Source of the DNA: an uncultured bacterium
GTDB taxonomy: Bacteria > Babelota > Babeliae > Babelales > Vermiphilaceae
Assembly (NCBI GenBank): GCA_963713925.1
Contig: OY970212.1
Location: forward strand, 448,001-512,000
Length of the DNA stretch: 64,000 nt
Direction: 5' to 3'
In this document: positions 5,716-44,737 of the stretch, one piece after another
Position numbering within the stretch: position 1 is the first letter of the stretch
Layout of the letters: every line of letters begins with the position of its first letter
Notes under the pieces: generated by a model
The model's input: only the letters and a program-made list of their open reading frames with translations
Databases searched by the model: none
What the model was told of the DNA's origin: nothing
Made by a program: the position numbers and the translations under genes

Positions 5716-5744
5716 ACTATACAATGGAAGGATCATGAAAGCAA
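5716..5744 (-). promoter_or_regulatory. Sigma70-like promoter TTGCTT-N17-TATAGT overlapping the stop of the upstream gene
   Basis: Homologous to 5111-5139 and 8983-9011. Confidence 0.5.
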
Positions 5745-8333
5745 TGAAACTATTGAGTTGCAATGTGTATTGGCTATAACTGCTTGCGGGTCCGATACTG
5801 TGCCATTCGCGCTTACGCCGACAAGATAATAGGTATCAATAACATTGGGATTTCTATTATGATCCAGAACCAGCAAAGAGCTACCAGCTGCAATGGTCGC
5901 GACAACTTGAGTGAGCGCGGCATCCCGATATAGTATGTACTCTGTCGGAGCGTTTGATGCTGGATTTTGCCAACTGATTTGATTGATAAAATCGGTCTGG
6001 GTCAAAAATTGGTTTTCAAACCGGCAGGCACGCAAGTTGGTTGGTCCACTCGCGCAACTTGTATTGACGGTAACGGTTTGTATTGGTGATCCTTTGTCAT
6101 TTGTGCTGACGCCGACGATATAATAGGTATCAAAAACATTGGGATTTCTATTAGGATCTAAAAACTGCAAGGGATTGGCAGTTGCCGCAATAGTTGCTGC
6201 AAGTTGTGTCAATGTGACATTGCGATAGATGTTGTATGTTGCCGGAACATTTGTAGAAGGATTTGACCAATTGATTTTATTGACAAAATCGGGTGGCATT
6301 GCAGAAAGATCTATAAACTGGCAACCGGTTATATTAGTTGGCGCACCGACACAACTCGTATTGACGGTAATGGTTTGTACCGGCGATGAGCCTTCGTCAT
6401 TCGTGACGCCGACAATATAATAGGTATCGATGGTCGGATTGTTATCTAAAAACTGCAAGGGACTGGCAGTGGCGGGAATAGTTGCGATAAGTTGTGTCAA
6501 TGTGGCATTGCGATAGATGTTATATGTTGTCGGAACATTTGTTGAAGGATTTGACCAACTGATTTGATTGACAAAATCGGGTGGCATTGCAGAAAGATCG
6601 ATAAACTGGCAGCTGGTTATATTGGTGGGCGCACCAACACAACTTGTATTTACGGTGACGGTTTGTACCGGCGAGCCTTCGTCATTCGTGACGCCGACAA
6701 TATAATAGGTATTGATGGTCGGATTGTTATCTAAAAACTGCAAAGGACTGGCAGTGGCGGGAACAGTTCCGGCCAATTGTGTCAATGCGGCATCGCGATA
6801 GATGTTATATGTCGCCGGAACATTTGTAGTAGGATTTGACCAGCTGATTTTATTTACAAAATCGGGTTGCATTACAGAAAGATCTATAAACTGGCAGCTG
6901 GTTATATTAGTTGGCGCACCAACACAACTTGTATTTACGGTAACGGTTTGTACTGGCGATATTGCACCATCTGCGGCGTTAACGCCGACAATGTAATAGG
7001 TATCAACAATACTCGGATTTCTATTAGGATCTGAAAACTCCAAGGGACTGGCGGTAGCGGGAATAGTTGCGGCAAGTTGTGTCAATGCGGCATCGCGATA
7101 GATTCTATATTCTGTCGGAGCCTCTGTTCCGGGAATTGTCGGAGGATTTGACCAACTGATTTGATTGACAAAATCGGGTGGCATTGCAGAAAGATCGATA
7201 AACTGGCAGCTGGTTATATTAGTGGGCGCACCAACACAGACCAGCTGAACTATGCTGACGGTATTATTATTATTTCCTACATACGCAAAGGTAGTACTAT
7301 TGATTGCTATAGGAATTGGCCCGGTAATGGTTGCTTTTGGATCACTGACCGTTCCAATGACCTGTGCATTGATTGGGTTGCTTATATCCACTATGCTCAC
7401 GCTATGATCGTTAAAATTCGTCACATACGCAAAGTTACCGCTGATTGCGATATCAGCTGGGGCATTGAAGGTTGATGATGGGTCACTAACCTTTGCCACA
7501 ACGAGATTAAGATTGATATCAATTACGCTTACGTTAAAGTGATTACTACTAATTCCGCTTGCCACATATGCATAGTTACCGCTGATCGCTATCGCAGTTG
7601 GCCCGAAAATGATTGATGATGGGTCATTGACCGTTGTCAAAACCTCGCCAAAACTCGGGTCGCTTGGATTTACATCGACTACACTCACGAGATTATTTAA
7701 TTCGTTCGTCACATAGGCACGAATACCGCCGCTGATTGCTATTGCGCTTGGTCCATCAAAGGTTTCTGTTGGATCACTAACCGTTTGAATGACATGTGCA
7801 TTGAGTGGGCTGCTTATATCAACGATGCTTACACTACCTAAGTTTTCACCATTTTGAAAAAAGTTTGTTACATATGCAAAATTACCATTTATTGCTATAG
7901 CATTTGGGCCTGAGAAGGTTCCCGGGAAAGGGAGGTCAGTAACCGTTCCCACAACCTGGTTAAAAGTTGGGCTGCTCGGATTTACATCAATTATGCTCAC
8001 GCTCCCGGGCAAAAAATCATTCGCCACATATGCAATGTTACCGCTGATTGCTATAGCGATTGGCGCTTCGAAGGTTGATGACGGGTCACTAACCTTTCCC
8101 ACAACTTGATTAAACGTTGGGCTGGTTGGATTTATATCAATTATGCTTACGCTATTGCCATGTGTATTCGTTACATATGCCAAGTTACCGTTGATTGCGA
8201 TGGCAGCTGGCACGTTGAAGGTGTGTGTTGGGTCGCTAACTATTCCTACAACGGTTGGTTGGCATGTGTATACAGTGCTGGGAAATTGTATTAATGAAAA
8301 AAACAGTGCAATGCGCGCATATTTCATTGGCAT
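5733..8333 (-). CDS. Secreted YVTN/LVIVD-type beta-propeller protein with five C-terminal FN3-like repeats (adhesin-like)
   Basis: About 7 blades of P.AIAI.G..AYV.N....VSIID; five units of APTNIT.C...NQISWSNP...YNIYR...TYYIVGV. Confidence 0.8.
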   Translation of the reverse strand: MPMKYARIALFFSLIQFPSTVYTCQPTVVGIVSDPTHTFNVPAAIAINGNLAYVTNTHGNSVSIIDINPTSPTFNQVVGKVSDPSSTFEAPIAIAISGNIAYVANDFLPGSVSIIDVNPSSPTFNQVVGTVTDLPFPGTFSGPNAIAINGNFAYVTNFFQNGENLGSVSIVDISSPLNAHVIQTVSDPTETFDGPSAIAISGGIRAYVTNELNNLVSVVDVNPSDPSFGEVLTTVNDPSSIIFGPTAIAISGNYAYVASGISSNHFNVSVIDINLNLVVAKVSDPSSTFNAPADIAISGNFAYVTNFNDHSVSIVDISNPINAQVIGTVSDPKATITGPIPIAINSTTFAYVGNNNNTVSIVQLVCVGAPTNITSCQFIDLSAMPPDFVNQISWSNPPTIPGTEAPTEYRIYRDAALTQLAATIPATASPLEFSDPNRNPSIVDTYYIVGVNAADGAISPVQTVTVNTSCVGAPTNITSCQFIDLSVMQPDFVNKISWSNPTTNVPATYNIYRDAALTQLAGTVPATASPLQFLDNNPTINTYYIVGVTNDEGSPVQTVTVNTSCVGAPTNITSCQFIDLSAMPPDFVNQISWSNPSTNVPTTYNIYRNATLTQLIATIPATASPLQFLDNNPTIDTYYIVGVTNDEGSSPVQTITVNTSCVGAPTNITGCQFIDLSAMPPDFVNKINWSNPSTNVPATYNIYRNVTLTQLAATIAATANPLQFLDPNRNPNVFDTYYIVGVSTNDKGSPIQTVTVNTSCASGPTNLRACRFENQFLTQTDFINQISWQNPASNAPTEYILYRDAALTQVVATIAAGSSLLVLDHNRNPNVIDTYYLVGVSANGTVSDPQAVIANTHCNSIVSLLS
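5760..7240 (-). repeat. Intragenic tandem array of five ~290-bp FN3-like units
   Basis: Near-identical DNA blocks (e.g. GCGCACCAACACAACTTGTATT, AAAATCGGGTGGCATTGCAGAAAGATC) recur at ~290-bp period. Confidence 0.85.
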
Positions 8334-27847: not shown

Positions 27848-28051
27848 ATGAACAAAAGCCCTTTATTACAACGTCCCGATTATGTCGTGTGCACCTGCAT
27901 GGGTGTGATGTACTCAGAAATTTGCCAAGCTATTGAAGAGGGATCAGACTCACTTGAAAAGTTGTCTGATCTGCTCATGACGGGCACCGGATGCACTAGT
28001 TGCGTTCCTGAAGTGCAGATGATTCTCAAGGAGTATGGTAAAAAATCCTGA
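27848..28051 (+). CDS. BFD-like [2Fe-2S]-binding protein
   Basis: VVCTCMGV...I..AI..G......GTGCTSC pattern. Confidence 0.85.
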   Translation: MNKSPLLQRPDYVVCTCMGVMYSEICQAIEEGSDSLEKLSDLLMTGTGCTSCVPEVQMILKEYGKKS

Positions 28052-28133
28052 GCCATCCACGATATTTTTGCAAAATTCAGTTGAAATCTCAGATAAAAAC
28101 GTTAATATAGTGAAGCTGAGTTTGACATTTTTC

Positions 28134-28219
28134 GGCGAGATTCCCGAGCGGTCAAAGGGGACGGACTGTAAATCCGTTGGCTTATGTCTTCGAAGGTTCG
28201 AATCCTTCTCTCGCCACCA
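28134..28219 (+). tRNA. tRNA-Tyr(GTA)
   Basis: GGCGAGA/TCTCGCC acceptor stem, anticodon loop CTGTAAA, long variable arm, GGTTCGAATCC, encoded CCA. Confidence 0.96.
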
Positions 28220-28356
28220 GGCTTTGCCCAAAGGGCTACGCCTGGCGCAGCCAGTGGTTAAGGTAGAATAGCTAATATTGATAGCAGGAATGCGAAGCCT
28301 GTCCGGCGAAGTTTATGAGGTTTTACTTCGGAGTAAGAACGTAGCCTGGACTGGAA
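28220..28356 (+). repeat. tRNA-trailer inverted doublet of family-A palindromes, copy 1
   Basis: Aligns over ~140 nt with 28637-28783. Confidence 0.85.
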
Positions 28357-28398
28357 AAATAAATTCCTCTATTATAAAAGCTTATCCGGGGCTTTTCA

Positions 28399-28476
28399 CC
28401 CAAGTTACGCTTTGCTTCACTTGGGACCCGATTTTCGCCTCGGCTGCGTGCGCCATAGCTCTTCGAGCGACGACGG
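28399..28476. repeat. Family-G element (minus strand, 28399-28430) followed by a family-A element (28443-28476)
   Basis: CCCAAGTTACGCTTTGCTTCACTTGGGACCCG; GCTGCGTGCGCCATAGCTCTTCGAGCGACGACGG. Confidence 0.65.
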
Positions 28477-28560
28477 GCCAGACTTCGCTATAAAGCGACG
28501 GGATTCCCATAGCTTTGATTTGAAAATTGCCAAGTATAAATGGAACTTGGGTATAAATAT

Positions 28561-28636
28561 GCGGGAATAGCTCAATTGGTAGAGCGGCAGCCTTCCAAGC
28601 TGTAGGTTGCGGGTTCGAGTCCCGTTTCCCGCTCCA
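28561..28636 (+). tRNA. tRNA-Gly(TCC)
   Basis: GCGGGAA/TTCCCGC acceptor stem, loop CTTCCAA, TTCGAG T-loop, CCA. Confidence 0.96.
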
Positions 28637-28783
28637 GGCTTCACCCATAAAGGGTTACGCCTGGCGCAGCCAGTTGCTAAGGTAGAGCGGTCTATATTGA
28701 TAGAACAAGCGTGAAGCCTGTCCGGCGAAGTTTAAAGCTTCCTGAGGTCTTACTTCGGAGTAAGAACGTAGCCCGGACTGGAA
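28637..28783 (+). repeat. tRNA-trailer inverted doublet of family-A palindromes, copy 2
   Basis: Aligns with 28220-28356. Confidence 0.85.
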
Positions 28784-28811
28784 CAACAACCCGCTCATTT
28801 CCTTTAGAAAT

Positions 28812-28909
28812 GGCTGGGCAGGCCAGCAAAAAAGGTTTTGAAATTTTGTTAATATTGAGAGTGCAATAGCGTAGGCTGTCACGCCATAGCTCTTTGAGCG
28901 ACGGTTGAC
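28812..28909 (+). repeat. Family-A doublet homologous to the tRNA-Thr(TGT) trailer but with no tRNA upstream
   Basis: GGCTGGGCAGGCCAGCAAAAAAGGTTTTGA matches 29176-29205; right arm GGCTGTCACGCCATAGC. Confidence 0.7.
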
Positions 28910-29050
28910 TATGTTGTTAGGCGTCTTCATTTTTAGCCTGTACGAGTAAAGAAATCCGGATATTTATTCCGGTCTGCATTTGAAAATTTTTTAAGAAACC
29001 AGGATTTATCGATTAATGAATACCTGGTTTCTGTTTGAAATTCTAGGAGC

Positions 29051-29126
29051 GCCGGTGTAGCTCAGCTGGTAGAGCAACTGATTTGTAATCAGTAGGTCGT
29101 TGGTTCAAGTCCAATCACCGGCTCCA
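29051..29126 (+). tRNA. tRNA-Thr(TGT)
   Basis: GCCGGTG/CACCGGC acceptor stem, CTGAT-TTGTAA..ATCAG anticodon arm, CCA. Confidence 0.96.
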
Positions 29127-29312
29127 GCCTTCGCTATATCACCCAAGCAGTACTGCTTGGGTCCGATAGAGCTTCGGCTGGGCAGGCCAGCAAAAAAGAT
29201 TTTGAGATATTATCGATTGCTGGCAGTAAAAAGCGATGGCTGGGTCCCAAAATGTAGTGAAACGAAATTTTGGGTTATATGCTGTCTCGCCATGGCCTTG
29301 GCGGACGCGGAC
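29127..29312 (+). repeat. tRNA-trailer family-A doublet with two nested family-G hairpins (29142-29164, 29242-29274)
   Basis: CCAGCC...GGCTGG stem using the tRNA CCA; perfect inner palindrome CCCAAGCAGTACTGCTTGGG. Confidence 0.75.
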
Positions 29313-29415
29313 AATCTTTTTGTATAACAAAAGGCTCTTAGACTTGTAAAAACAGGCAGAATTAGTTGTTTTTTTCTTATTTTTCTTTAATCTAGGAAAA
29401 TAAAGAGCGAGTGGT

Positions 29416-29491
29416 GCCCACGTAGCTCAGTTGGTAGAGCACTTCCTTGGTAAGGGAGAGGTCACCGGTTCAATCCCGGTCGCGGGCTCCA
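29416..29491 (+). tRNA. tRNA-Thr(GGT)
   Basis: Cloverleaf with loop TTGGTAA and encoded CCA; one A-C mismatch in the acceptor stem. Confidence 0.93.
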
Positions 29492-29545
29492 GATCTTAGG
29501 AACGGCAGTTTTCAGTTTACACCATAAATCAATGGCTTTTATAAC

Positions 29546-29704
29546 ATGGCAAAGAATAGAGTGACCACACATTTATCGTGTGAACAATGCAAAGAACGTA
29601 ATTACACCCAGGTTTTAACAAAAAAACGTACAATGGGTTCTTTGAGTCTTAGTAAGTTTTGTTCTCGTTGTCGCTTGCATACAAAGCATAAAGAGACAAA
29701 GTAA
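29546..29704 (+). CDS. rpmG: 50S ribosomal protein L33, zinc-binding form (not in the ORF track)
   Basis: MAKNRVTTHLSCEQCKERNY...KFCSRCRLHTKHKETK; canonical position before tRNA-Trp/secE. Confidence 0.93.
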   Translation: MAKNRVTTHLSCEQCKERNYTQVLTKKRTMGSLSLSKFCSRCRLHTKHKETK

Positions 29705-29725
29705 GATAGCGAGAATGGTATTTGA

Positions 29726-29802
29726 AGGCCAGTAGCTCGAATTGGTAGAGCGGCAGACTCCAAATCTGCGGGTTGGGGGTTCGAATCCCTCCTGGCCTGC
29801 CA
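29726..29802 (+). tRNA. tRNA-Trp(CCA)
   Basis: AGGCCAG/CTGGCCT acceptor stem, loop CTCCAAA, G discriminator, CCA. Confidence 0.96.
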
Positions 29803-29848
29803 AACAGGCGAGCAGTAATTGATACAATTTTTTCAGATAGGCAAATCA

Positions 29849-30043
29849 ATGAAGGATATTATCCAATTTTTGCAAGAAGTTAGGCTTGAGTTTTCAAAGG
29901 TCGTTTGGCCCAAGTCCGATGAGTTTGTAGGTTCGGTTTTGGTCGTCCTTTTATTGGTGGCCTTTTTTGCTATCTTCCTCTTAGTGGTTGATTCTTTTTT
30001 GGCTAAAGTTGTCGACATGGTCTTTGGGGCGTTTGGCTTCTAA
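29849..30043 (+). CDS. secE: Preprotein translocase subunit SecE
   Basis: FLQEVRLEFSKVVWP signature + single TM; synteny. Confidence 0.93.
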   Translation: MKDIIQFLQEVRLEFSKVVWPKSDEFVGSVLVVLLLVAFFAIFLLVVDSFLAKVVDMVFGAFGF

Positions 30044-30072
30044 GTTGCATCGCAGATGTGTGGGAAAAATCA

Positions 30073-41799: not shown

Positions 41800-43881
41800 A
41801 TGGTAAAAAGGTATTCCTTGCCGGAGTTTGGTTATAGCGTAGAAATCGGTAAGTTTGCTCAACAAGCAGACGGCGCCGTTTGGTTGCAACAGGGGGGAAC
41901 AGTTGTACTTGCAACGGTTGTCTCAGCTCCATCCAAGGAGTTTCCTGGTTTTTTACCATTAACTGTTGAGTATCGCGAATTATTTTCAGCTGCCGGCAAA
42001 ATTCCGGGGGGTTACTTCAAACGTGAAGGAAAACCCACCGATAAAGAAGTTCTGACTGGACGCATCATCGATAGATCAATTCGTCCACTCTTTCCTTACG
42101 ACTATTTCAATCAAATTCAAGTTGTAGCGACAGTTTATTCCGTTGATAAGCTGTATGAGCCGAACTCATTAGCGCTTATTGCTTCATCACTTGCGCTCTC
42201 CATTTCTAAGATCCCATTTTTAGGACCGGTTGGTGTTATTGACATTGCGCGTGTGAATGGAGAATGGATTTTTTGCCCAACTCATCCCCAAGCACTTGCC
42301 TCAGATGTTCGCTTAGTAATTGCAGGTACCAAAGAAGGTATTTGCATGATCGAAGGATCAGCAAAAGAAATATCAGAAGATGATATTGTTGACCTTATGT
42401 TCAAGGCGCATGACAAAATTAAGCAGCAAATTGCATGGCAAGAACAGATCAAAGCTGAAGTCGGCGTTGCACCTGAAGTGACAGCCTTCGATTTTGATTG
42501 GAATGAATGGCAAAAACGTATTGCCGATTTTGTCGGTGCAGATCAAATCACTTCTATCTATAAAGCAGATAAATTAGAAAGAAGTGCCGCTCTTGATGCA
42601 TTGCGAGATTCTTTCCTTGAAAAATACAAAGAAGAGATTGAGCAAACGCAAGTTCCGGTTAAAGTGTTTGATTACATGCTTGATCAAACAATTCAGAAAA
42701 AAATTACCGAGCGTATCTTTGAATTAAATAAGCGTATTGATGGAAGAGATTTCAATAAAATTCGTCAGATCTCAACCGAAGTTGGTCTATTGCCATCAGT
42801 GCATGGTTCTTCATTGTTTACTCGTGGCAGAACGCAAGCATTAACCAGCGTCACTTTGGGCGGTGGTTCCGATGAGCAAAAAATTGAAGGAATTATGGAA
42901 GATGCCGCTAATACCGGAACTTTCATGCTTCATTATAACTTTCCTCCGTTTTCAGCCGGTGAAGCTCGTCCAATGCGTGGCCCTGGTCGTCGTGAAATCG
43001 GTCATGGATATTTAGCTGCATCGGCAATTCGCCCCGTGTTACCATCAAAAGAAGCATTCCCATACACCATTCGTGTTGTTACGGATATTCTGGAAGTTGA
43101 CGGCTCAAGTTCAATGGCTACCACTTGCGGGAGCACGATGGCACTTATGCACGCAGGCGTACCGATTTCAAATATGGTCGGTGGTATTGCTATGGGTCTT
43201 TTAAAGAGCGCCTCAGGAGAATTCCGTGTGTTGTCTGACATTTCCGGATTTGAAGACGCATTTGGATTGATGGACTTTAAAGTGACTGGAACTGATCGAG
43301 GCGTGACTGCAATTCAGATGGACATCAAATATAAAGGTGGATTCACCCGAGAAGTGTTCCAGAAGGCATTGCAACAAGCTCGTGAAGGTCGCATGTTCAT
43401 TCTCAATGAAATGCGCAAAGTCATGAGTGAACCAAATAAAGAGCTTTCAAATCTTGTTCCAAAATTAATTTCTTTCAAAGTGCCAACGGAAAAAATTGGT
43501 GCGATCATTGGAACAGGCGGTAAAGTTATTAAAGAGATTATCGAAAAAACAAAGACCAGCATTGATATTGAAGATGATGGGTTGGTCAAAATATTTGGCG
43601 GTCCGGATTCTCAGCTTGAGACAGCAGTCAATTGGGTTAAAACCATTGGCGGGCATATTCAAGCAGGTGCGAGATATCAAGGTCCTATTCGCAAGATCGC
43701 TGAATTTGGCTTGTTTGTTGAACTTGTTCCGGGAGTTGATGGTCTCGTGCATGTGTCCAATATCCCAAGAGAAAAACAAAGAACATTTGCAAGAGATTAC
43801 AAGCAGGGCGATATCGTCAATGTTGAGGTCGTTGAATACGATGAATCAACAGGAAGAGTTCGCTTGAGATTGATTGAGTAA
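41800..43881 (+). CDS. pnp: Polyribonucleotide nucleotidyltransferase (PNPase)
   Basis: Two RNase PH domains (IPGGYFKREG, GRREIGHG, MDFKV), KH (IIGTGG), S1. Confidence 0.98.
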   Translation: MVKRYSLPEFGYSVEIGKFAQQADGAVWLQQGGTVVLATVVSAPSKEFPGFLPLTVEYRELFSAAGKIPGGYFKREGKPTDKEVLTGRIIDRSIRPLFPYDYFNQIQVVATVYSVDKLYEPNSLALIASSLALSISKIPFLGPVGVIDIARVNGEWIFCPTHPQALASDVRLVIAGTKEGICMIEGSAKEISEDDIVDLMFKAHDKIKQQIAWQEQIKAEVGVAPEVTAFDFDWNEWQKRIADFVGADQITSIYKADKLERSAALDALRDSFLEKYKEEIEQTQVPVKVFDYMLDQTIQKKITERIFELNKRIDGRDFNKIRQISTEVGLLPSVHGSSLFTRGRTQALTSVTLGGGSDEQKIEGIMEDAANTGTFMLHYNFPPFSAGEARPMRGPGRREIGHGYLAASAIRPVLPSKEAFPYTIRVVTDILEVDGSSSMATTCGSTMALMHAGVPISNMVGGIAMGLLKSASGEFRVLSDISGFEDAFGLMDFKVTGTDRGVTAIQMDIKYKGGFTREVFQKALQQAREGRMFILNEMRKVMSEPNKELSNLVPKLISFKVPTEKIGAIIGTGGKVIKEIIEKTKTSIDIEDDGLVKIFGGPDSQLETAVNWVKTIGGHIQAGARYQGPIRKIAEFGLFVELVPGVDGLVHVSNIPREKQRTFARDYKQGDIVNVEVVEYDESTGRVRLRLIE

Positions 43882-43885
43882 TTGC

Positions 43886-44737
43886 ATGACTGTTTCAGAA
43901 AAAAAATATGCGCGTCCGTCAGGGCGCGCTTTTCATGTCCCTCGCACAATAAAAATAACGATTAATCCATTTGGCTATGCCGATAGTTCAGTTTTGTATG
44001 AATCAGGCAATACAAAAGTGCTTTGCGCCGTGAGTTTGTCTCAAGGAGTGCCACATTTTTTAAAGGGAAGCCGTAAAGGCTGGTTGTCTGCGGAATACTC
44101 CTTACTTCCTATGGCAACTCAAAGCCGCAATCAGCGGGATGCTTTCGGTTCAAAACCAAATGGAAGATCGATCGAGATTTCACGCTTTATCGGACGTTCT
44201 TTGCGTGCGATGGTTGATCTTGATCGCCTTGGTGAGCGCACGATTCAGATTGATTGTGACGTGCTCCAAGCTGATGGGGGAACCCGCACTGCCTGTGTCA
44301 CTGGAGCATCCATTGCTTTGCAGATTGCGCAAGAAAAATGGATTGAGCGCGGCGATATGAAACATTCAATTATCACCGACAGCCTTGCCTCACTTTCAGT
44401 GGGGGTCACTAACGGCACCGTTTTGGTTGATCTTGATTATCAAGAAGATGTTGCCATTGACGCAGATTACAACGTGGTTATGAGTAAATCAGGTTCTGTC
44501 GTTGAGGTGCAAGGAACGCTTGAGCATGGGACAGTCGATTGGAAAACATTCCAGGCAATTGTTGAGAATGCGCGAGCTGGAATTCAAGAGGTATTTGCTC
44601 AAATTGATGCATGCACCAAAATACAGCCGTCATTTGCCCAAGAAGATGTTCGCAGCAACTCTCAAAAATCTGAAGACACAAAGCCTGCTGTCGGTATGTT
44701 CAGTCTAAAAAATCGCTTGGATAGTTTGTCAAAGTAG
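43886..44737 (+). CDS. rph: Ribonuclease PH
   Basis: GWLSAEYSLLP, GRSIEISRFIGRSLR, DCDVLQADGGTRTA. Confidence 0.96.
   Translation: MTVSEKKYARPSGRAFHVPRTIKITINPFGYADSSVLYESGNTKVLCAVSLSQGVPHFLKGSRKGWLSAEYSLLPMATQSRNQRDAFGSKPNGRSIEISRFIGRSLRAMVDLDRLGERTIQIDCDVLQADGGTRTACVTGASIALQIAQEKWIERGDMKHSIITDSLASLSVGVTNGTVLVDLDYQEDVAIDADYNVVMSKSGSVVEVQGTLEHGTVDWKTFQAIVENARAGIQEVFAQIDACTKIQPSFAQEDVRSNSQKSEDTKPAVGMFSLKNRLDSLSK

Follow-up and report, generated by a model that had tools for sequence, protein, structure and literature searches.

Three tRNA genes of the window (the whole 64,000-nt stretch analysed here) are followed, from their encoded CCA onwards, by hairpin trailers that are probably gene-less leader copies of a small selfish element whose nuclease is predicted to recognize and nick the hairpins as ssDNA, upon which host repair would copy or swap the cassette. 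The cassette consists of the CCA end of a tRNA gene, a leader of ~100–200 nt and a standalone GIY-YIG gene of ~80 aa. It is specific to tRNA ends, has the orientation of the tRNA, is patchily present and exists in two types that have been exchanged at one site. The initial annotation had offered, as the first of two alternatives, an element for which the 3' end of the tRNA is both a target and a part of its own terminus. This proposal is supported by the genome-wide enrichment of the hairpins at tRNA ends, by a nuclease gene behind a leader of identical layout, by the patchy occupancy of orthologous tRNAs and by a replacement in Rhizobium.

Hairpin trailers in the window and in the genome

The tRNA cluster of the window has the order Tyr-Gly-Thr-Thr-Trp (ARAGORN; the tRNAs are also recognized by Rfam RF00005) and lies entirely on the + strand. 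The tRNA-Tyr(GTA) gene (28134..28219, encoded CCA at 28217-28219) is the host site of a long (~145-nt) leader devoid of gene (28217..28359; nhmmer E 3.7e-42, this copy being itself in the profile). This leader begins with arm 1 (28217..28245), a hairpin closed by CCA-GG-C / G-CC-TGG that includes a conserved 3x3 internal loop. Arm 1 is followed on its 3' side by a conserved tail mini-hairpin, TGGC-N3-GCCAG (28243..28254), then by a half-arm (28292..28301) that is the reverse complement of the first part of arm 1 and could pair instead with CA-NN-CTTCGC over ~10 bp, and by the inverted arm 2 (28301..28351), whose GAA/GTA internal loop is on the + strand. The tRNA-Gly(TCC) gene (28561..28636, CCA at 28634-28636) is followed by a similar long leader (28634..28786; nhmmer E 7.9e-49, the copy again being in the profile), with arm 1 at 28634-28664, the tail at 28662-28673, the half-arm at 28711-28720 and arm 2 at 28720-28778. 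As had been noted at the outset, these two trailers are homologues built from two inverted arms (86% identity over 145 columns), and they share one layout: arm 1, small tail hairpin, AT-rich spacer, a half-arm able to pair with the beginning of arm 1, and inverted arm 2. A short form follows tRNA-Thr(TGT) (29051..29126, CCA at 29124-29126). It covers 29124..29190 and comprises only a GC-type arm 1 (29124-29181), whose loop holds a nested CCCAA..TTGGG palindrome (29142-29164), and then the tail (29179-29190). The presence of the encoded CCA in the stem of all three arms was thus confirmed at 28217-28245, 28634-28664 and 29124-29181. The other two genes of the cluster, tRNA-Thr(GGT) (29416..29491) and tRNA-Trp(CCA) (29726..29802), are devoid of trailer and constitute internal negatives.

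Related sequences are found between the tRNA genes, also on the + strand. A secondary mosaic of related hairpins (28382..28500) includes a nested CCCAA..TTGGG palindrome (28399-28429) and a hairpin at 28452-28472, and a partial further copy made of tail, spacer, half-arm and hairpin (28814..28903) is recognized by its motifs and by a weak nhmmer match (E 0.5). The CCCAA..TTGGG palindrome belongs to a family with 104 matches in the genome that nests inside other families and for which no partner gene was identified. In the region 28134-30058, the tRNA cluster is followed only by short genes. A tuf gene often adjoins Tyr-Gly-Thr tRNA clusters on their 3' side; this cluster lacks it, since no ORF of at least 100 aa is found until 30058. 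Elsewhere in the window, an 866-aa ORF (5733-8333, minus strand) made of internal repeats of ~285-300 nt and ~150 nt perhaps encodes a repetitive surface protein.

In predicted RNA ensembles of the tRNA plus 150 nt, the probability that the CCA pairs with the trailer is 0.99 for Tyr, 0.91 for Gly and 1.00 for Thr(TGT), and the acceptor stem stays intact in the predicted folds. A CCA pairing above 0.5 is predicted for 13/18 tRNAs carrying this hairpin family (family A) vs 6/15 tRNAs not parsed as such, a group that includes variant arms. The trailer does not correspond to any Rfam family, only tRNA and tmRNA reaching the gathering score in the window region and 14 loci. An intrinsic terminator was also considered and rejected, as no terminator-like site was found on the + strand in 27900-29900.

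The genome is a single 1.32-Mb contig (G000; 95.75% complete) with 39 tRNA/tmRNA genes, 19 of which have an arm directly after the CCA (CCA-NN-arm parse). A stricter pattern of the full unit gave 17 matches, one of them a nested duplicate. Among the 16 distinct units, 15 start exactly at a tRNA CCA, out of 34,216 CCA sites in the 1.32-Mb genome, and the same search in five shuffled genomes found 0, 1, 0, 0 and 0 units. The enrichment of the family at tRNA 3' ends, on which the initial annotation had made its proposal depend, is therefore present. Eight long copies (~150 nt, 76-86% identical) follow eight different tRNAs; as these differ in their acceptor stems, the junction lies at the CCA. 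Partial copies are also found away from tRNAs (for example at G000:569246, 881248 and 1075823), so that targeting of tRNA ends is strong and not absolute. When the CCA was omitted from the pattern, 20 places were found in several phyla. In 19 of them a CCA is in register one base upstream; 12 of these 19 are tRNA/tmRNA ends called by ARAGORN. A nuclease gene lies downstream in 6/20, within the downstream DNA covered.

Several individual sites deserve mention. The arms found off tRNAs at G000:1318668, 39350 and 610285 sit behind strings resembling tRNA tails, and the string at 1318668 matches 7 nt of the end of a tRNA-Glu located ~10 kb upstream, which suggests displacement by an integrated island. 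At G000:569210, a unit starts at the CCA that ends another palindromic repeat and not a tRNA, hinting that a stem followed by CCA may suffice as target. A variant arm with CATT/AATG instead of the mismatch loop is parsed at tRNA-Gln (G000:840074-840148, minus strand) with its start at an internal CCA, four bases ahead of the end of the tRNA; the first bases of the element could therefore supply the last four nucleotides of the tRNA. The same variant follows tRNA-Ser(GCT) and is found in the loci L092, L123 and L142. Two tRNA-Arg(CCT) calls located 1.5 kb apart (G000:703766 and 705276) both lack an encoded CCA.

The GIY-YIG gene and the occupancy of its sites

Outside the window, a long leader copy follows tRNA-Thr(CGT) (G000:1103083-1103158, minus strand) and leads straight into an intact ORF of 80 aa encoding a GIY-YIG protein. 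This leader (G000:1102933-1103085) is 79% identical to the Tyr leader of the window. The ORF starts 161 nt after the CCA, and a further arm in the same orientation is located 3' of it. The search for a nuclease ORF lying between or beside arms at other loci, which had been suggested from the window, was thus successful. The protein is made of a single domain (PF01541, E 7.7e-18); among solved structures, it is closest to the UPF0213 protein 1zg2 (E 2e-6), with a weak match to Slx1 (E 0.03). Tyr, Arg, His and Glu positions, which are presumably the catalytic residues of the GIY-YIG nuclease, are conserved in at least 90% of its clade. No NCBIfam family covers the four small GIY-YIG proteins of the genome, and a query with a single protein found no relative in viral contigs.

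Relatives of the nuclease were collected together with a control GIY-YIG clade, and the loci with more than 400 nt of upstream DNA were retained (74/80 and 75/80, respectively). A tRNA or tmRNA gene lies on the same strand within 400 nt upstream in 64/74 loci of the relatives vs 0/75 of the control clade, the former set being dominated by non-independent tRNA-Ala loci of Alphaproteobacteria. The other hosts are tRNAs for Leu, Val, Met, Tyr, Ser, Arg, Asp, Glu, Lys, Ile and Gly as well as tmRNA, in several phyla. In the order to which the window belongs, the gene was found in 118/201 genomes, and it follows a tRNA or tmRNA gene in 18/26 other loci with enough upstream DNA (own locus removed). 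Arms and gene tend to occur together among 28 order-mates, which are kin and not independent. With a strict pattern whose reversed control gave 0 in all genomes, arms were found in 14/16 genomes with the gene (13 with at least 3 arms) vs 4/12 without it (1 with at least 3). Two of the 16 gene-bearing order-mates have no arm by this pattern.

In a phylogenetic tree, 112 proteins of the tRNA type are placed apart from 22 Ssn-like ones (support 0.77 and 0.91), each set having been gathered by likeness to its own query. The label Ssn-like was deduced from the repeat layout, the set including no SsnA sequence. The 80-aa nuclease and the Ssn-like protein of the same genome share 30% identity (E 3e-6). 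Mapping of the leader type on the nuclease tree requires 31 changes vs a shuffle mean of 43.8; as kin share labels, this fit was not counted as co-evolution.

Each of the other three small GIY-YIG genes of the genome (L002 and L003 at G000:353985 and 141659, L004 at G000:104377) is flanked on both sides by a palindromic repeat family of its own; patterns of such families matched 66 and 26 times genome-wide. The L004 gene and its GTCAT-headed repeat resemble an Ssn/SRM pair, yet miss the published pattern. The loci L138, L139 and L142 carry, 3' of the nuclease gene, a duplicate of ~18 nt of the tRNA 3' tail and a second arm. In L138 and L139 a hairpin interrupts the duplicated T-loop, and L138 has two tandem copies of the nuclease gene.

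The trailers of the window occupy sites that are often empty in relatives. The spacing between the Tyr and Gly tRNA genes is 1-23 nt in 14/28 relatives that have the same cluster vs 341 nt here. A loose parse, which includes the own locus and suffers from some misses and false calls, found an arm at Tyr in 10/29 loci, at Gly in 5/29 and at Thr(TGT) in 5/29. A further case is provided by the orthologous tRNA-Ala(GGC) end in the genus to which a Rhizobium record belongs (the best 30 of its 81 genomes). Among these 30, 14 have no cassette after the CCA; the leader is of the CG type in 12 and of the GC type in 4, the latter with a different nuclease (about 50-53% identity to the query vs 54-61% for the CG-type nuclease). 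The 14 empty loci were covered over only ~1.5 kb downstream, so that any cassette pushed further away by an island would have escaped detection. The CG-type loci include 10 with the gene or part of it and 2 with the leader alone. In two loci of the CG type, 24 nt of the GC-type gene, comprising its final codons and stop, survive downstream in front of the same flank, indicating that one type was overwritten or displaced by the other. In 5/16 of the cassette-bearing loci, the trailer is kept and the gene is broken or lost. Purifying selection acts on both gene and leader: the 7 CG-type ORFs (21 pairs) show a pN of 0.037 vs a pS of 0.306, and the 101-nt CG-type leader, with a divergence of 0.025, is ~12-fold more conserved than synonymous sites.

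The boundaries of the element are not those of a classical transposon. At the full copy of this genome, no terminal inverted repeats surround the gene, no tRNA-tail or target duplication is found and the arm after the gene is in direct orientation. Duplications of the tRNA tail were seen by eye at 3/29 other loci.

Pairing, strand and competing explanations

The pairing within arm 1 was studied on 301 tRNA/tmRNA genes, 115 of which were parsed, giving 78 unique arms; the shuffles used for comparison ignore relatedness. Covariation with CCA-NN, which the initial annotation had proposed to seek in this genome and its relatives, was found: the two bases after the CCA are Watson-Crick partners of the two bases before TGG in 48/78 arms (shuffle mean 7.2, max 17), with 13 paired types. 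The signal persists without the CG type (34/64, shuffle mean 5.8) and in the own genome (13/19, shuffle mean 5.7, max 11), two of the misses in the latter being mis-parses of nested inserts. The half-arm also covaries with NN (33/51 arms, shuffle mean 7.6). The earlier statement that the partner strand changes in step with the bases after CCA, so that pairing is kept, holds for the covariation itself, but both sides lie within the trailer, and 30/78 unique arms have a broken pair at one or both of the covarying positions, mostly those of the GT type (second position, 22 arms). Pairing into the variable bases of the tRNA was rejected, the discriminator base (N73) pairing at chance with the base after TGG (11/78, shuffle mean 9.8). 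As N73 is at chance, pairing is maintained inside the element, and the host contributes nothing to it but the invariant CCA.

On the tRNA strand, the internal loop of arm 1 is T[TA]C x T[TA]C in 70/77 arms and is almost never repaired to Watson-Crick pairs. The opposite strand carries G[AT]A x G[AT]A, presumably sheared G.A pairs, and folds better in 66/77 arms as DNA and in 62/77 as RNA. In arm 2, the purine loop is on the tRNA strand (GTA/GAA in 15/32 and ATA/GAC in 6/32 unique hairpins, from 46/80 loci parsed). One motif per strand is easier to reconcile with ssDNA hairpins recognized as inverted pairs than with a signal in the pre-tRNA. Taken alone, the GAA/GTA loop of arm 2, which is on the transcribed strand, presumably fits an RNA loop-E-like motif as well as ssDNA. 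A literature search, which reached few of the subscription papers, found no paper on a DNA motif bracketed by G.A pairs.

Taken as a whole, the spread of the cassette could be viewed as follows. The TGG of the element would pair with the CCA of the target, which would thereby complete arm 1, in a manner analogous to the guide/target pairing of IS200/IS605 elements. By analogy with SsnA, the GIY-YIG nuclease would cut ssDNA at or near the hairpin. Joining or copying at the ends of tRNA genes would be carried out by host repair; this step is assigned to the host because GIY-YIG enzymes hydrolyse and are not known to do strand transfer. The nuclease gene would be expressed by read-through from the tRNA promoter, and the single intact gene of this genome may mobilize the gene-less copies in trans. 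A RAYT or a reverse transcriptase was rejected as mobilizer, none having been found intact in the genome (95.75% complete), which has only a 30-aa piece of Y1_Tnp. Some observations count against a selfish element. Some arms lie off tRNA ends, 4/12 genomes without the gene have arms and 2/16 genomes with the gene have none. The full copy has neither terminal inverted repeats around its gene nor a target duplication, and neither a reverse transcriptase nor an intact RAYT was found that might provide the joining step. Long residence and strong purifying selection at one Rhizobium site also fit a domesticated host function.

Such a function, which we consider unlikely, would be that of a guard: tRNA 3' ends are integration hot spots, and the nuclease would protect them by cutting incoming or recombining ssDNA carrying the hairpin, as SsnA limits transformation in Neisseria (PMC11893778). 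Besides this precedent and the selection and apparent long residence just mentioned, the presence of the gene in 118/201 genomes of the order speaks for it. However, arms are found behind apparent displaced tRNA tails (at G000:1318668, with its 7 nt of the tRNA-Glu end, and at several loci seen by eye), so that the cassette does not seem to keep islands from integrating ahead of it, and the overwriting of one cassette type by another resembles competition between elements. It is also improbable that the cassette acts at the RNA level, either because the trailer hides the CCA and the nuclease cuts the hairpin to free the tRNA, as in a poison-antidote pair, or because the tRNA-leader transcript is a cofactor of the nuclease. 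Such an action would account for a CCA predicted to be paired in the pre-tRNA in either of two helices that both covary with NN, for the ~12-fold higher conservation of the leader relative to synonymous sites and for the location of the cassette 3' of the tRNA on the same strand. It would also account for the double change from G.A to A.C in arm 2 (6/32 unique hairpins), which presumably matches an isosteric swap of sheared pairs. Nevertheless, trailers persist where the gene is broken or lost (5/16 cassette loci of Rhizobium) and in 4/12 genomes where no gene was found, it is the antisense strand that carries the purine-rich loop of arm 1, and SsnA, which belongs to a sister clade, neither binds nor cuts RNA (PMC11893778).

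The second alternative of the initial annotation, a host device that modulates pre-tRNA maturation, is not supported as an explanation of origin: Tyr and Gly are separated by 1-23 nt in 14/28 relatives and the purine-rich motif of arm 1 is opposite to the pre-tRNA strand. A processing signal evolved by the host, tuning 3' maturation and unrelated in origin to the nuclease gene, is very doubtful. Already weakened by the empty orthologous sites (the trailer is absent from the same tRNAs in most relatives, with 10/29, 5/29 and 5/29 loci parsed for Tyr, Gly and Thr-TGT, own locus included), it is difficult to reconcile with trailers that occur behind unrelated tRNAs and tmRNA, have a layout identical to that of the nuclease leader and do not covary with N73. 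It would agree with the stable predicted sequestration of the CCA and with the enzymes of the genome, which encodes RNase E/G, RNase PH-domain exonucleases and a protein of the PolyA_pol family, but in which no RNase Z reaches the family cut-off. A 3' hairpin could therefore slow trimming, and a side effect of the trailer on tRNA processing is possible. In the window, two RNase PH-domain genes, likely PNPase and RNase PH, are located directly 3' of tRNA-Val(GAC) (41800-44737; a 695-aa frame with two domains and a 287-aa frame with one). Among public reads, no run had half of the words of the stretch, the best being a DNA run with a share of 0.21; 4/22 runs were aligned to it, all as contigs, and in the one RNA run among them depth fell only in bins overlapping tRNA bodies. 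Finally, an ordinary REP-like repeat that starts with CCA by coincidence, without any targeting, is hardly credible. A few arms do lie off tRNAs and are nested with other palindromic families, but the counts of 15/16 full units at a tRNA CCA among 34,216 sites and of 19/20 independent matches with CCA in register refute it, unless they are artefacts of the patterns used. The selfish cassette thus remains the preferred reading.

Relation to known systems and significance

The cassette works like two known kinds of systems, Ssn/SRM and REP/RAYT, yet lacks some features of both. The Ssn nucleases (cd10448, SsnA) are associated with NTS/SRM hairpin repeats (Chenal et al. 2025, PMC11893778). SsnA nicks ssDNA beside its NTS and was found not to bind or cut RNA. 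As in the present case (80 aa), a single-domain GIY-YIG protein of less than 150 aa is involved: those of the Ssn system have ~80-100 aa, adjoin imperfect palindromic repeats and coexist with gene-less copies of these repeats elsewhere in the genome, and the system was likened by its authors to a mobile element (PMC11893778). However, the degenerate SRM pattern was found within 500 nt in 0/74 loci of the cassette, the sensitivity of this pattern being limited (only 8/75 loci in the control clade). Furthermore, the repeats described here are anchored at the CCA ends of tRNA/tmRNA genes, whereas the word tRNA is absent from the main text of PMC11893778, and the nuclease clade is apart from the Ssn-like set (sets chosen by query). 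Among the 12/14 supplementary files of that paper covered here, one of the peer-review type calls the SLX1-like sister clade sparsely characterized.

The resemblance to REP, BIME and REPIN repeats, which are linked to RAYT (TnpA-REP) proteins and to the ends of IS200/IS605 elements, concerns imperfect hairpins with conserved mismatches, inverted pairs, nested mosaics and a GTAG-containing motif (PMC3479197, PMC3733652). The choice of the target by IS200/IS605 through base pairing with a guide encoded by the element (PMC3479197) is a model for CCA:TGG pairing. Short imperfect palindromes in inverted pairs and mosaics are indeed found here, but the partner is a GIY-YIG and not an HUH/Y1 protein, the sole 30-aa PF01797 (Y1_Tnp) piece not being beside the arms, and GTAG is inside the 3x3 internal loop, where it alternates with GAAG, instead of at the 5' foot. 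The survey of GTAG/CGTC repeats contains no reference to GIY-YIG and refers to tRNA only for enzyme genes. The lack of terminal inverted repeats and of target-site duplication at the full copy also distinguishes the cassette from MITEs and classical IS.

Phage T4 SegB, a free-standing GIY-YIG homing endonuclease, is encoded in tRNA gene regions and spreads by cutting and gene conversion (PMC2330249), a process that would explain allele replacement at one tRNA. The replacement in Rhizobium is compatible, by analogy, with such homing, in which both DNA strands of an allele free of the element would be cut before gene conversion. The cassette differs from SegB in that it encodes only the catalytic domain of ~80 aa, has a conserved hairpin leader, occurs as gene-less copies on many different tRNAs and gave no relative in viral contigs (one query). 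Its closest structures, 1zg2 and weakly Slx1, relate the nuclease to the standalone Slx1-like/UPF0213 proteins, minimal domains devoid of accessory parts. Links of these proteins with repair or restriction-modification were predicted, and the portion of PMC1564403 available reports neither adjacency to tRNA genes nor a hairpin leader. Within the literature reached by the search, which excluded most subscription papers, no account was found of a hairpin cassette at tRNA ends that carries a GIY-YIG gene. The present analysis contributes a control clade, a test of N73, a comparison of the two strands and the replacement of alleles in Rhizobium.

It is conceivable, although only tentatively so, that these cassettes represent a widespread class of minimal mobile elements, in which a GIY-YIG protein of ~80 aa and its leader would insert precisely at the CCA, whichever the tRNA or tmRNA gene, through TGG:CCA pairing, without transposase, integrase or reverse transcriptase, and in which matched subtypes of leader and nuclease would overwrite each other at a given tRNA end. 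About half of the pre-tRNAs of the genome are predicted to have their CCA inside a hairpin, which raises the question of their 3' maturation, no RNase Z being found above the family cut-off. These data give the large and sparsely characterized clade of tiny Slx1-like GIY-YIG proteins a concrete and testable candidate substrate, and Rhizobium, Bradyrhizobium and Rhodopseudomonas offer culturable hosts of the cassette. They extend the logic of a hairpin combined with a nuclease, known from Ssn and REP/RAYT, to a strict target, the CCA end of tRNA/tmRNA genes, which is a transcribed safe harbour. If mobile, the cassettes, at ~350-450 bp, would rank with the smallest known site-specific elements and might yield new ssDNA nucleases.
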